A stretch of 32,000 bases of DNA from Gemmata obscuriglobus (GTDB taxonomy: Bacteria; Planctomycetota; Planctomycetia; Gemmatales; Gemmataceae). Under the pieces are notes generated by a model that was not told where the DNA came from, made no database searches, and was given only the letters and a program-made list of their open reading frames with translations. The position numbers were made by a program, and so were the translations under genes. Shown piece after piece: positions 23,844-28,429 of this stretch (the first letter of the stretch is position 1; each line of letters starts with the position of its first letter). The DNA lies in NCBI RefSeq assembly GCF_008065095.1, contig NZ_CP042911.1, positions 2,430,001 to 2,462,000 on the forward strand, written 5' to 3'.

Positions 23844-26600
23844 ATGGCGTTTCATAACAGCCGTTCGCTGCGCAAGAGCCTGTTCGGACGCCTCGCGATC
23901 GAACAGATGGAAGACCGATGCGTCCCAGCATTTTTGGCCGTAACCGGGTTTGCCGACGGCCCCGCCGGGCCGCCGACCGCCGGTACCGGGACGCAGAACG
24001 ACCCGTACCTGTTCGGCAGCCTGCGGGCGGCGGTCCAGTACGCGCAAGCGGCGGGCGACGACACCATCACGCTGTCCGCCGGCACCTATCTGCTTACCGA
24101 CACCACCGACTTCGGCCTGGACATCGTCGACGCGGCAACGACCGGGAAGCTGACGATCGGCGGGGCCGGAGCAAGCCAGACCTCCATCACGGCCAGCTTC
24201 GGAGCGCCGAACGCGAACACCCGCCTCTTCAACCTCTCGGGCGGGGCCGACCTGACGCTCACGAACATGACGCTCAGTGGCGGAAACGTCACCGATATCG
24301 GCGGTGCCATCGTAGCGTACGGCGGCTCCGCGGGAACCCATCTGGCGCTCACCGGCGTCGACCTGTTCGCCAACCAGGCCCAAGATCTGGGCGGAGGGGT
24401 CGCGCTCATCGGGATCGACGGAAGTGTCACCGCGACCCTGACGAACGTAAACGTGACCAACAACCAGTCCGGATATGGCGGCGGGATCGGGATATTTTAC
24501 GGCGGTATCTTGACGGCCACTGACAGCTCGTTCACCGGCAACCAGGCTGTCGTGATCGGCGGCGGGATCGCGACATACTACGGCGGGTCGGTGACGATCA
24601 CCAACAGCACTCTGAGTGGGAACACCGCAATTTACGGAGGCGCGGTCGGGGTGTGCTTAGACATCGGCGGGTCGGTGACGATCACCAACAGCACTCTGAG
24701 TGGGAACACCGCACATTACGGAGGCGCGGTCGGGGTGTTCTCAGACATCGCCGGTACGGTGTCGGTGACCAACAGCACCCTGAGCGGGAACGCCGCAGAT
24801 TACGGCGGCGCGGTCTTCACGGCCGACGACTACGGTGGGGCGACCACCCTGACCAACAGCACGGTGAGCGGCAACACCGCCACATACGGCGGGGGCGGGC
24901 TCGCCGCTCTGTACGGCGGGAACGACGGCACGCTCGACCTGGTAAACAGCACCGTCAGCGGCAACGCCGCTGCTTACGGGGGCGGTGCCCTCTTCACCGG
25001 CGCGCAGGGGACGCTGACCAACTCGACCGTGACCGCCAACCGGGGGTACGGAGGCGGGCTGTCGGCCGACGGCTGGATCGCGGTCACCGTCCGGAACTCG
25101 ATCGTCGCCGGCAACTTGGACCCGACCGGAACCACCCCGGACGACCTGTTCGTGGACTCCGGCATCCCGTTCCTCTTCAACTACTCGCTGATCGGCGTGG
25201 GTGACAGTCTGGTGCTGGCCCCCCCGCCGGTGGGCACGGGCAACCAGATCGGGACATTAGCGAACCCGCTCGACCCGCGGCTCGGGCCGCTGGCGAATAA
25301 CGGCGGGCTGACGCACACGCACGCCCTTCTGGCGGACAGCCCGGCCCGCGACATGGGCGACCCGGACGCCTCGAACCTGCCGCCCACGGACCAGCGGGGA
25401 CAAACCCGGGTGCTCGGCGGCCGGGTGGACATCGGCGCGGTCGAGTTCGTCGCGGTCGCCATCGGCCCGGACGCGCTCCCGGCGGGCACGGTCGGGACCG
25501 CGTACGCGGCGACGCTCACCGCGGCCGGCGCGAGCGGTCCGTTCGTGTACACCGTCACCGCCGGGGCGCTGCCGCCCGGCGTGACGCTGAGCGCGGCCGG
25601 GGAGCTGACCGGCGCTCCGACGGCGGCCGGGGCGTACACGTTCACAGTTGCGGCGACCGACTCGAGCGGGGCCAGCGGCGCGCGCGAGTTCGCCCTCACG
25701 GTCGCCGCGGCCGCCACGCCGCCCAAGTTCGTGCTGGGGGCCGGGAACAACGGTCGGGTCCAGCTCGCCGGCGGCGACGGCACCTCGATCCCGGCCTTTA
25801 ACGGGTTCCAGGGTGAGGTGCGGGTCGCCACCACGGACCTCAACGGCGACGGCGTGATGGACATCGTCGCCGGGGCCGGTGCGGGCTCGGCGGGCGGGCA
25901 CGTGAAGGTGTTCGACGGGGCCACCGGCGCCCTGATCCGCTCGTTCCTCGCGTTCGACGGGTTCGCCGGCGGGGTGTACGTCACCACCGGCGACATCAAC
26001 CGGGACGGCGTCGCCGACCTGATCGTGGGGGCCGGTGCGGGCTCGGCGGGCGGGCACGTGAAGGTGTTCGACGGGGCCACCGGCGCCCTGATCCGCTCGT
26101 TCTTCGCGTTCGACGGGTTCGCCGGCGGCGCCCGGGTGTCCAGCGGGGACGTGAACGGGGACGGGGCGGACGACATCATTGTGGGGGCCGGTGTGGGCTC
26201 GGCGGGCGGGCACGTGAAGGTGTTCGACGGGGCCACCGGCGCCCTGGTCCGCTCGTTCTTCACGTTCGACGGGTCCACCGGCGGGGTGTTCGTGGGGGCC
26301 GCCGACCTGGACGGCAACGGCACCGACGAGATCCTCGTGGGGGCCGACGCCGGGGCCGACCCGGTGGTGAACGTGTACGGCGCCGCGGACCGGCCCCAGT
26401 TGAGTTTCCTGGCGTACGCCCCGGCGTTCCGCGGCGGGGTCCGGGTGGCGGGCTTCGACGTGGACGGGGACGGCCGGGATGAGATCCTCACCGGCAGCGG
26501 GGCTGGGGCCGCGGGCGACGGCCGCGTGTTCGACTCCGCCGGCCGGGTGCTCAGCTCGCAGATCGTCGCCGACGTGCTCAGCGGCATCTTCGTCGGGTGA
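23844..26600 (+). CDS. Giant secreted protein: Pmp-like parallel beta-helix, choice-of-anchor-Q-like end, Ig-like (He_PIG-type) domain, FG-GAP/VCBS propeller
   Basis: The N-terminus is MAFHNSRSLRKSLFGRLAIEQMEDRCVPA. Many [ST]N[ST]T[LV]SGN.A..YGG[AG] repeats follow, then LDPRLGPLANNGGLTHTHALL..SPARD.G...DQRG..R...VDIGAVEF, then GTAYAATLTA.G..GPFVYTV..GALPPGVTL. At least 5 repeats of D[LIV][ND]GDG..D[IL][IL]VG...GS.GGHVKVFDG close the protein. Confidence 0.8.
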   Translation: MAFHNSRSLRKSLFGRLAIEQMEDRCVPAFLAVTGFADGPAGPPTAGTGTQNDPYLFGSLRAAVQYAQAAGDDTITLSAGTYLLTDTTDFGLDIVDAATTGKLTIGGAGASQTSITASFGAPNANTRLFNLSGGADLTLTNMTLSGGNVTDIGGAIVAYGGSAGTHLALTGVDLFANQAQDLGGGVALIGIDGSVTATLTNVNVTNNQSGYGGGIGIFYGGILTATDSSFTGNQAVVIGGGIATYYGGSVTITNSTLSGNTAIYGGAVGVCLDIGGSVTITNSTLSGNTAHYGGAVGVFSDIAGTVSVTNSTLSGNAADYGGAVFTADDYGGATTLTNSTVSGNTATYGGGGLAALYGGNDGTLDLVNSTVSGNAAAYGGGALFTGAQGTLTNSTVTANRGYGGGLSADGWIAVTVRNSIVAGNLDPTGTTPDDLFVDSGIPFLFNYSLIGVGDSLVLAPPPVGTGNQIGTLANPLDPRLGPLANNGGLTHTHALLADSPARDMGDPDASNLPPTDQRGQTRVLGGRVDIGAVEFVAVAIGPDALPAGTVGTAYAATLTAAGASGPFVYTVTAGALPPGVTLSAAGELTGAPTAAGAYTFTVAATDSSGASGAREFALTVAAAATPPKFVLGAGNNGRVQLAGGDGTSIPAFNGFQGEVRVATTDLNGDGVMDIVAGAGAGSAGGHVKVFDGATGALIRSFLAFDGFAGGVYVTTGDINRDGVADLIVGAGAGSAGGHVKVFDGATGALIRSFFAFDGFAGGARVSSGDVNGDGADDIIVGAGVGSAGGHVKVFDGATGALVRSFFTFDGSTGGVFVGAADLDGNGTDEILVGADAGADPVVNVYGAADRPQLSFLAYAPAFRGGVRVAGFDVDGDGRDEILTGSGAGAAGDGRVFDSAGRVLSSQIVADVLSGIFVG
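24581..24748 (+). repeat. In-frame tandem duplication, 2 x 84 bp (28 aa) inside the beta-helix region
   Basis: Copy 24581-24664 and copy 24665-24748 differ at 4 of 84 positions by my alignment (GGSVTITNSTLSGNTA[IH]YGGAVGV..DI). A more diverged third unit follows. Confidence 0.9.
25872..26339 (+). repeat. In-frame tandem repeat, 3 x 156 bp (52 aa) FG-GAP blades
   Basis: Units start at 25872, 26028 and 26184. The first ~100 nt of units 1 and 2 are identical except for one base. The last ~56 nt of each unit are clearly diverged. Confidence 0.9.
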
Positions 26601-26695
26601 GGCCGAGAATCTGCCCGCCGCCCGGCCGTTCGGAGTTGCTCCCGGCCGCGGCGCGCTGTAATCTACCGGTGATACCTTCGCACGAGACGGATACC

Positions 26696-26773
26696 GTGAC
26701 CGCGTCCCTGCTCCTTCTGAACCTTCCGCTTCTTGGACCGTCACGGGGCCATTGTCCTTCGCGCGTCGGCTGA
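26696..26773 (+). CDS. Candidate leucine-rich leader peptide of leuA (25 codons)
   Basis: GTG 26696 to TGA 26771-26773 encodes (M)TASLLLLNLPLLGPSRGHCPSRVG. Seven of 25 codons are Leu, four of them consecutive, and four of the seven are CTT, which is unusual in this GC-rich DNA. The SD is weak (GAGACGGA). The peptide is too short for the ORF track. Confidence 0.4.
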   Translation: MTASLLLLNLPLLGPSRGHCPSRVG

Positions 26774-26794
26774 TCCGATCCACGAGGTAACAGC

Positions 26795-26831
26795 GGCCCC
26801 GGAACTCAAGTTCCGGGGCCGATTTCGTTTC
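26795..26831 (+). terminator. Terminator-like hairpin (putative attenuator) 12 nt before the leuA SD
   Basis: A perfect 12-bp stem pairs GGCCCCGGAACT (26795-26806) with AGTTCCGGGGCC (26809-26820). GATTTCGTTTC follows. The upstream segment GTCACGGGGCC (26740-26750) can pair with the same left arm, which would form an antiterminator. Confidence 0.55.
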
Positions 26832-26842
26832 AGGAGCGCGTT

Positions 26843-28429
26843 ATGTCCGTTCCGGCCGATCCGAACCGCGTCATCATCTTCGACACCACGCTGCGCGACG
26901 GCGAGCAGAGCCCGGGCTGCAGCATGAACCTCGCCGAGAAACTCGAGATGGCCCGCGCGCTCGCGGACCTCGGCGTGGACGTGATCGAGGCCGGGTTCCC
27001 GATCGCCTCCCCGGGCGACTTCGAGAGCGTGCAGGCCATCGCGCGGCAGATCCACGGGCCGGTCATCGCCGGCCTCGCCCGGTGCAACCCCACGGACATC
27101 GACCGCGCCGCGGACGCCGTAAAGGACGCCGAGAAGCCGCGCATCCACGTGTTCCTCGCCACCAGCGCGATCCACCGCGAGTTCAAGCTGAAGATGACCT
27201 CGGAGGAGGTGGCGCGGCGGGCCGTCGAGGGCGTCAAACGCGCCCGCGACCGGTGCGCCGACATCGAGTTTTCCCCCGAGGACGCGGCCCGCACCGAACT
27301 CGACTTCCTGGCAGAGGTGGTCGAGCGTGTGATCGAGGCCGGGGCCACCACGCTCAACATCCCCGACACCGTCGGGTACGCGGTGCCGCAGCACTACGCC
27401 GCCATCATCCGGCACCTCAAGAAGAACGTCCGCGGGATCGACAACTGCGTGCTCTCGGTCCACTGCCACAACGACCTGGGCCTGGCGGTGGCCAACAGCC
27501 TCGCGGCCCTGGGCGAGGGCGCGCGGCAGGTCGAGTGCACCATCAACGGCATCGGTGAGCGGGCCGGCAACACCTCGCTCGAAGAGGTGGTGATGGCGCT
27601 GCACACCCGCCGCGACTACTACGGGCTGACCACCGGGATCAACACCCGGCACCTGTACCCGGTGAGCCGCAAGCTGTCGCACGTCACCGGGCAGACGGTG
27701 CAGCGGAACAAGGCGATTGTGGGGCAGAACGCCTTCGCGCACGAGGCCGGCATCCACCAGGACGGGATGCTCAAGGAGCGCAGCACCTACGAGATCATGC
27801 GCCCCGAGGACGTGGGCATCCCGCAGACCGAGCTGGTGCTGGGCAAGCACAGCGGCCGGCACGCGCTCAAGCAGCGGGTCGCCGCCCTGGGGTACGGCCT
27901 GTCCGACGAGCAACTGAACAAGGTGTTCGAGGAGTTCAAGAAGCTCGCGGACAAGAAGAAGGAGATCTACGACGCGGACATTGAGGCGCTCGCGGAGAAC
28001 CAGCTCCAGGAGGGCACGGGGAACCTGTGGACCCTCGTCGGGTTCACCAGCACTGCGGGCACCGGGTCGCAGACCTCGGCCGCGGTGACGCTCAAGCACC
28101 TCGACGGCTCGGTGCGTCGCGACGCCGCCGTCGGCAACGGCCCGATCGACGCGCTGTTCAAGGCAATCAACCGGGTCACCGGGGCGGCCGTGCGGGTGGT
28201 GGACTACCGGGTGCGGTCAGTGAGCCAGGACATGGACGCGCTGGGCGAGGCGAGCATCGAGATCGAGTACTCGGGCAAGAAGTCGCGCGCCCGGGCGGTC
28301 AGCGTGGACGTGGTGGAGGCGAGCGCCCTGGCGTACCTGGAGGTGGTGAACCGAGTCGCCTCGCGCCAGCTCCGCGACCGGCTCAAGCCGACCGACAACG
28401 TGCCGACCGAGGCCGTCCCCGCGGGCTAA
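26843..28429 (+). CDS. leuA: 2-isopropylmalate synthase
   Basis: The N-terminus [15 protein letters not shown], then [16 protein letters not shown], the GIGERAGN motif and the C-terminal LeuA regulatory domain are all present. An AGGAG SD lies 7 nt upstream. Confidence 0.95.

Follow-up and report, generated by a model that had tools for sequence, protein, structure and literature searches.

A conserved leucine-codon leader upstream of leuA in Gemmata obscuriglobus and other Gemmataceae is a probable transcription attenuator

Attenuators that respond to leucine have been familiar since the 1980s, and in the Escherichia coli leu leader the rare control codon is CUA. A leader of comparable design lies immediately upstream of leuA in a 32,000 nt stretch of the Gemmata obscuriglobus genome (contig NZ_CP042911.1, positions 2,430,001–2,462,000 of the forward strand; hereafter the window, numbered from its first base). 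It is probably a ribosome-mediated (leader-peptide) transcription attenuator that reads charged tRNA-Leu, and we put the chance of this at about three in four. As in enterobacterial leuL (RF00512), a short open reading frame (ORF) has four consecutive Leu codons followed by Asn and uses rare Leu control codons, the choice between a terminator and an antiterminator would be read by ribosome position, and leuA is the first regulated gene. The Gemmata leader differs in having a GTG or ATG start, in using CTT as the rare codon, and in preceding a lone leuA rather than leuABCD; in addition, its ORF runs across region 2, which forms the 5′ side of the base of a predicted 58 nt antiterminator, and its stop codon falls within that hairpin's apical loop (Table 1).

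Related arrangements have been described elsewhere. Leu leader attenuators precede leuA in Proteobacteria (Vitreschak et al. 2004, cited in PMC1262725), and these, as well as leaders in several metagenome loci (L095, L173, L191) with peptides such as MALSRGLSLLLLLPRKGD, share with the Gemmataceae a Leu-run peptide and alternative hairpins directly upstream of leuA. However, the Gemmataceae sequences and helices are unrelated to them, and the two groups probably arose independently or have lost all recognisable similarity. The actinobacterial LEU element (PMC1262725) likewise places a Leu-run upstream ORF (uORF) before leuA, with Leu codons complementary to the leuA Shine-Dalgarno (SD) sequence, but it is a pseudoknot or base-stem structure in which no terminator is obvious, and its presumed target is translation initiation. 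The Gemmataceae leaders instead have a conserved terminator with a U-rich tail at 23–189 nt from the leuA ribosome-binding site, and they have no conserved stem between Leu run and SD because the distance from leader to leuA varies over this range. A closer parallel in design is the Corynebacterium ilvB-II uORF motif (PMC10272879, PMC11109978), a lineage-restricted uORF with branched-chain codons and an in-frame conserved start and stop, in which the P1 stem similarly carries the antiterminator sequence and P2 is an intrinsic terminator; it differs in gene (ilvB), in phylum and sequence, and in its codons, a mixture of Ile, Leu and Val in place of a motif centred on Leu.

Naville and Gautheret (2010) recorded leader-peptide systems as known until then only from Proteobacteria and Actinobacteria, with Firmicutes added (PMC2965389), and Korolev et al. 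(2016) merely counted leader genes in Planctomycetes statistically (PMC4833913). An Rfam 15 scan of 26300–27100 with E-values up to 10 returned only chance matches to the bare hairpin and no Leu_leader (RF00512), a scan of 20 related loci at the gathering thresholds returned no family, and neither scan matched a T-box. The first-pass annotation, a model's reading of the letters, was aware of no ribosome-mediated attenuation in Planctomycetes, and this agrees with the literature searched and with Rfam 15, which hold no such attenuator; Lopatovskaya et al. (2010) lies outside that scope and priority is unsettled. The leuA leader is thus a lineage-specific new case, in the Gemmataceae, of a known regulatory principle.

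The leader ORF has 25 codons and encodes (M)TASLLLLNLPLLGPSRGHCPSRVG. The first-pass annotation had drawn attention to its seven Leu codons, four of them consecutive and four of them CTT, all of which are present, and had expected CTT to be rare in DNA this rich in GC. The window is 69.9% GC, and CTT indeed makes up only 33 of the 761 Leu codons (4.3%) in its 13 genes, against four of seven in the leader (Fisher p = 1.4e-4). Runs of four Leu occur only three times across the six frames of the 32 kb window, and only 0.08% of open 25-codon windows have both at least seven Leu and such a run. The leader frame is open upstream to a GTG at 26597 and has a further in-frame start at 26636, but both fall outside the predicted transcript because transcription is predicted to start near 26671.

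Conservation was followed in 22 Gemmataceae relatives, which with the window give 23 elements. They were fetched through LeuA (about 75–93% identity), blind to the leader, by a genome scan with LeuA, by a metagenome DNA pattern for the LeuA N-terminus and by exact LeuA protein look-ups. The genome scan gave at least three close relatives among the matches listed (L001, L002 and L003, the last truncated) as well as many other Planctomycetota, and a protein search gave more than 120 LeuA clusters at 80–93% identity, of which the named ones are Gemmataceae, Gemmata, Fimbriiglobus or Urbifossiella. All 13 metagenome loci with LeuA at least 83% identical over at least 90 residues have the element upstream, and it is also present in L001, L002 and seven non-redundant loci from the protein look-ups. 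Every one of the 22 relatives has the leader ORF, the Leu motif, a CGGGGC-type region 2, a stop-codon hairpin and the terminator, so that the short ORF and a Leu-rich motif are kept; loss of the ORF or of the Leu run in relatives had been named as evidence against the proposal. One of these loci, L001 (contig CAZKIQ010000003.1), belongs to a metagenome-assembled genome labelled 'uncultured Alcaligenaceae bacterium', yet at 83% LeuA identity to the window it has a leader and terminator of the Gemmataceae type; mislabelling or contamination of the bin is probable.

The homologous ORFs are 22–29 codons long (72, 75 or 78 nt in the core sequences), begin only with ATG or GTG, and are preceded in the relatives by GAGG, GGAGG or GAGA 8–13 nt upstream of the conserved start. 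Each relative has at least four leader Leu codons and an L-x-L-L motif, typically CTT CGA CTT CTC, and the synonymous Leu codons used across the leaders are CTT, CTC, CTG, CTA and TTG. Within the L-x-L-L block of the relatives' alignment the column entropies at codon positions 1, 2 and 3 are 0.36, 0.33 and 0.94. In the same Gemmataceae loci CTT accounts for 63 of 123 leader Leu codons (51%) but for 63 of 764 (~8%) in leuA, the leuA counts across loci being approximate since the leuA frame is wrong for ~5 loci (the count from the window alone is clean). In the core sequences the L-x-L-L motif ends four codons (12 nt) before CGGGGC, so a ribosome stalled on the last Leu codons would end just short of region 2.

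In two relatives, L157 and L175, the interval from the Leu codons to CGGGGC is 2 nt shorter and a further 1 nt is missing near the stop, where the frame is thereby restored. They read CGGGGC and the next hairpin in another frame and still stop in the same loop. The sequences thus indicate two constraints at once, in that the RNA motifs are kept whatever the frame and the frame is kept open to that stop, and the coding signatures say that the leader frame is under selection. A functional conserved C-terminal peptide, SSRVG, was also considered and is ruled out by the same two relatives, which keep the nucleotides in another frame.

These observations bear on the possibility that an untranslated structured RNA, with a site for a protein or small molecule, controls the terminator, and that the ORF and its Leu codons are by-products of GC-rich, stop-poor DNA. 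Such an RNA would accommodate three observations: nucleotides in much of the ORF's 3′ half are conserved irrespective of frame, CTTCG in the Leu region is a repeat of the apical hairpin's 5′ arm, and at 70% GC open frames of 25 codons are common. It would not account for the restriction of the start codon to ATG or GTG, for a start and stop held in frame in all sequences despite insertions and deletions (including the compensating −2/−1 nt in L157 and L175), for variation at the third positions of the Leu codons, or for a Leu enrichment and shift to rare CTT that are specific to the leader frame; the same logic also recurs with unrelated sequences in other lineages of the Planctomycetes-Verrucomicrobia-Chlamydiae (PVC) group, and no Rfam family is matched. 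A structured RNA of this kind is accordingly quite improbable.

Two other rare codons recur in the leaders. The codon inside L-x-L-L (A2 columns 44–46) is usually the rare Arg codon CGA, which forms 30 of 111 leader Arg codons compared to 5.8% of the Arg codons in window genes, and rare ATT Ile codons adjoin the Leu codons in many relatives, although there are none in the window leader. Both may be extra slow-decoding or multivalent control codons.

Table 1. Coordinates of the predicted leuA leader elements and associated features (window numbering unless a locus is named).
Feature	Coordinates	Strand	Evidence
Promoter −35 hexamer TTGCTC	26636–26641	+	TTGnnn-17-TAnAnT in 22/23 leaders
Promoter −10 hexamer TAATCT; 17 nt spacer 26642–26658; predicted transcription start near 26671	26659–26664	+	Aligned relatives
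Weak Shine-Dalgarno-like GAGACGGA 5′ of leader start	26684–26691	+	Inferred from position
Region 1, CCGTGAC, includes GTG start; pairs with GTCACGG 26740–26746	26694–26700	+	Predicted fold (window)
Leader ORF, GTG start, 25 codons, TGA stop 26771–26773	26696–26773	+	Sequence; homologous ORF in all 22 relatives
Leu control codons CTG CTC CTT CTG (26708–26719), CTT (26723–26725), CTT CTT (26729–26734)	26708–26734	+	Conserved L-x-L-L motif; CTT bias
Region 2, CGGGGCC, 5′ strand of antiterminator base; pairs with GGCCCCG 26795–26801	26744–26750	+	Conservation; predicted fold
Whole antiterminator hairpin, 58 nt: 7 bp 2:3 base, UUGU:ACAG, apical hairpin	26744–26801	+	−31.4 kcal/mol alone
Antiterminator apical hairpin; stop TGA (26771–26773) in loop CUGAU (26770–26774)	26757–26787	+	−11.0 kcal/mol alone
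Intrinsic terminator hairpin (regions 3 and 4), 12 bp, loop TCAA; arms CGGCCCCGGAAC (26794–26805) and GTTCCGGGGCCG (26810–26821)	26794–26821	+	Fold; conservation
U-rich tail ATTTCGTTTC	26822–26831	+	T enrichment
leuA SD AGGAG (26832–26836) and leuA gene (ATG 26843 to TAA 28429)	26832–28429	+	Profile scores
Second element of Pirellulales-type loci	L004:2865–2945, L010:2825–2905, L013:2858–2938, L014:2836–2916, variant in L011

The putative terminator is the sole terminator-like site in 26000–27500, and its hairpin has a free energy of −25.6 kcal/mol alone. The perfect 12 bp stem of the first-pass annotation stands in length but spans 26794–26821, since the interval 26795–26820 that it gave holds only 11 bp. 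T fills six of the ten tail positions, against an expectation of 1.5 (p = 0.0014); the elements average 5.6 of ten, and three tail positions are T throughout the core alignment. Across 16 relatives 96% of terminator cells are paired and two positions have compensatory changes; for example, a C-G pair is replaced by U-A in L196 and L197, where the left-arm U is still able to wobble-pair with the region 2 G. The leader stop is separated from the terminator by 21–30 nt across the elements, and the terminator from the leuA start by 21 nt in the window and 23–189 nt among the relatives. The largest of these distances is in the Fimbriiglobus-like locus L209 (672–1000), where leader and terminator are 189 nt away from leuA and an AT-rich segment of ~170 nt fills most of the gap; this looks like an insertion between attenuator and leuA. 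A repeated element was considered for the hairpin and rejected, GGCCCCGGAAC occurring once in the window.

The pairing that would exclude the terminator is formed by region 2. As the first-pass annotation pointed out, GTCACGGGGCC (26740–26750) mimics the terminator right arm GTTCCGGGGCC, matching it at 9 of 11 positions, and CGGGGCC within it is fully complementary to GGCCCCG of the left arm. The competing pairing that it proposed is supported, but in extent it would be a 58 nt hairpin and not a mere 7 bp duplex. In the 17 core sequences CGGGG does not vary, 14 of them retain the C that follows, and the segment occupies −27 to −21 relative to the stop; when the L-x-L-L codons are masked as by a ribosome, left arm and region 2 pair in 16 of the 17. 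The antiterminator overall, apical hairpin included, has 76.5% of cells paired, compared to 25–55% with the partners slid, and three relatives (L117, L205 and L081) retain a stop-codon hairpin built from different sequence. In nascent RNAs ending at 26805 or 26809 the antiterminator is the minimum-energy structure, whether the RNA is free or carries 30 nt ribosome masks over the Leu codons. The comparison of free energies that had been suggested gives −64.5 kcal/mol for the full leader (26672–26832) in the terminator state and −54.9 kcal/mol with the antiterminator forced, such that forcing the pairing of 26744–26750 with 26795–26801 costs about 10 kcal/mol. Upstream of region 2 the relatives have a 1:2 helix that covaries, with a score reached by 0 of 500 shuffles, and its region 1 strand is a different segment from that of the window; in the window 26694–26700 pairs with 26740–26746 in the minimum-energy structures of nascent RNAs that stop at 26750, 26760 or 26793 as well as of the full-length leader, and as a local structure the region 1:2 helix has −15.6 kcal/mol.

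The conserved promoter is located 26–33 nt upstream of the leader start. In 22 of the 23 elements, the window included, TTGnnn and TAnAnT occupy corresponding positions with 17 nt between them, and TAATCT aligns with TACACT, TAAACT and TAGACT of the relatives. The −35 hexamer of the first-pass annotation (TTGCTC) agrees with this; its −10 hexamer, TGTAAT at 26657–26662 with a 15 nt spacer, is present but 2 nt off from the position that the relatives give. A generic sigma-70 promoter scan found nothing and missed 26636–26664 because each hexamer matches the consensus at only three of six positions; it took the comparison with relatives to reveal the promoter.

The region between the upstream stop (TGA 26598–26600) and the leuA ATG is 242 nt long, and an SD and ATG follow directly on the hairpin and tail as the first-pass annotation had them. 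The product of leuA exceeds the curated cut-offs of two profiles, with 767.6 bits for NF002086 (cut-off 532) and 728.7 bits for TIGR00973 (cut-off 598.7). In the window leuA appears to stand alone with unrelated genes on both sides, an amine oxidase downstream and a 931-residue FG-GAP/He_PIG repeat protein upstream. The hairpin might then be taken for the terminator of the FG-GAP gene and the Leu-rich ORF for a coincidence, since no other site past the end of that gene at 26600 resembles a terminator. However, the hairpin lies 194 nt past this stop, a conserved promoter intervenes between the upstream gene and the leader, and in the relatives the upstream genes differ (protein kinase, ThuA/DUF7133 and unknown proteins) or are on the opposite strand (L203 and L205) while the element stays with leuA. 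Because the upstream genes vary in this way the element belongs to leuA, and a role as terminator of the FG-GAP gene is highly improbable.

As an attenuator, the leader combines a start-bearing ORF near the promoter, clustered Leu codons, a terminator, an antiterminator pairing that would exclude it, and spacings suited to a ribosome. This reading draws on sequence elements, conservation, the coding signature of the ORF and predicted alternative folds; from these we infer where transcription starts, that the leader is translated, that ribosomes stall on it, that the terminator works and that leucine is sensed. Transcription would begin ~7 nt past the −10 hexamer, near 26671, and a ribosome initiating at GTG 26696 would trail the RNA polymerase. 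The ribosome positions below assume the usual footprint sizes. When leucine is plentiful the ribosome would reach TGA 26771, and would melt and occupy ~26756–26785, the top of the 26744–26801 hairpin. With the top of the antiterminator blocked, the left arm (26794–26805) would be free for the right arm (26810–26821), the 12 bp terminator would form, and transcription would end around 26830, just 5′ of the leuA ribosome-binding site and about 12 nt before the ATG. The first-pass annotation had also proposed that a ribosome at the stop blocks the antiterminator, yet it placed the block on 26740–26750, whereas the footprint would cover the apical half of the hairpin. When leucine is scarce the ribosome would stall on the Leu codons at 26708–26734, four of them rare CTT, and region 1 would be held off region 2; CGGGGCC (26744–26750) would then pair with GGCCCCG (26795–26801) once this is transcribed, the antiterminator would preclude the terminator, and leuA would be transcribed. 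With no ribosome, 26694–26700 would pair with 26740–26746, and the terminator state would be the overall minimum.

A number of observations weigh against this attenuator. The first group concerns the antiterminator. Its 2:3 base is near-invariant and has no covariation, and the score of the whole antiterminator is reached by 36 of 500 shuffles. Complementarity to the left arm in the window is not above that of shuffles (8 of 100 are as good; z = −1.5). RNAalifold pairs region 2 with GCG..CGG just downstream, its consensus containing only the terminator and this short alternative hairpin, and GC-rich RNA offers many pairings. The window is off the covarying 1:2 register of the relatives, 26694–26700 pairing with 26740–26746 instead, and free nascent RNA also forms the antiterminator, which leaves the outcome without translation ambiguous. 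The second group concerns the leader and the terminator, in that the window leader has a GTG start and a weak SD, the U-tract is interrupted by C and G, and some relatives have only four T of ten. Finally, the leuA and ilvB leaders of Streptomyces coelicolor have a similar look, and their mutants do not behave as classical attenuators (PMC1262725).

In many of the sequences the z-scores of upstream-RNA shuffles are likewise weak or not significant; this test is a weak one because GC-rich RNA pairs readily. Compensatory changes, which had been put forward as a check on both pairings, were found in the terminator, at the two positions above, and not in the antiterminator base. Because the columns of that base are invariant, the case for the antiterminator is built on its frame-independent conservation of position.

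The imperfect U-tract and the Streptomyces leuA mutants would fit a translated leader that acted on leuA by another route, such as Rho-dependent polarity, leuA translation initiation or mRNA stability, with the hairpin as a weak or constitutive terminator or a stabiliser. The window tail also abuts the leuA SD, and in the minimum-energy fold of 26690–26845 the first leader codons (26695–26715) pair with the leuA SD and ATG region (26832–26845); CUCCU within the Leu codons (26711–26715) also complements AGGAG, an arrangement reminiscent of the base stem in the actinobacterial LEU element. Against such a route, the distance from hairpin to leuA is 23–189 nt among the relatives, so sequestration of the ribosome-binding site cannot be the conserved mechanism. 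In addition, T enrichment after the stem persists in DNA of 70% GC, region 2 is conserved jointly with the left arm, and the leader stop keeps its place inside the loop of the antiterminator. Such a route is unlikely, and classical attenuation is the preferred reading of the Gemmataceae leader.

Leu leaders are also located before leuA in other PVC lineages, including six further planctomycetotal loci (L004, L010, L013, L015, L016 and L019) and two of Verrucomicrobiota (L021 and L034), with 5–9 Leu and a strong terminator 20–50 nt on. These leaders differ from the Gemmataceae version in sequence, in having canonical tails of ~6–7 T and in placing the terminator 29–222 nt before leuA, and none is in Rfam 15. 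The pattern suggests that Leu attenuation of leuA spans the PVC group (Pirellulales, Planctomycetales and Verrucomicrobiota loci). In L017 and L030 (Planctomycetota), too, a Leu-rich leader ORF and a terminator precede leuA. Example peptides of the other PVC leaders are MNNNLHLLLALRLLRLASETAG, MIRSGLLRRLLLLLLLEG and MNTNSLLLNLLLCLPLPGRS, and most of these loci have a strong terminator that ends in GGGGTTTTTTT-type sequence.

As a regulatory principle the leuA attenuator would be ordinary. Its interest lies in the organism, since transcription and translation were once proposed to be kept spatially apart in Gemmata (Gottshall et al. 2014, cited in PMC5394234 and PMC5287468). The Gemmataceae attenuator would argue for coupling, because the ribosome must trail RNA polymerase within a few tens of nucleotides; its conservation therefore bears on that older claim, and the leader offers a simple reporter or assay. 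That Leu attenuators are widespread and uncatalogued at PVC leuA genes, with the Gemmataceae version as conserved genetic evidence of transcription-translation coupling, is a proposal for which we see the odds as even. The leader would also provide a concrete cis-regulatory element for amino-acid control in Planctomycetes, as well as a candidate RNA family and a short ORF, skipped by gene callers, that can be annotated in Gemmataceae genomes.

Two further conserved elements were seen at leuA loci outside the Gemmataceae. The first is a distinct and highly conserved leuA leader in metagenome contigs of another lineage (L095, L173, L191, L098, L092, L124, L138, L186, L105 and others), which encodes a MALSRGLSLLLLLPRKGD-like peptide; its DNA contains a CCCCCGCAAGGGGG hairpin as well as GGAGAAGAAG, a segment that complements the Leu codons. 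The second is in Pirellulales-type loci, between the Leu-leader terminator and leuA and ~90–130 nt before the start; it has no Rfam match, consists of GAGGGCGYGGYTGGYGTTGCCCGGGCCGACC-loop-GGTCGGCC in the form of a 7 bp hairpin with a variable loop, and could be a second regulatory RNA.

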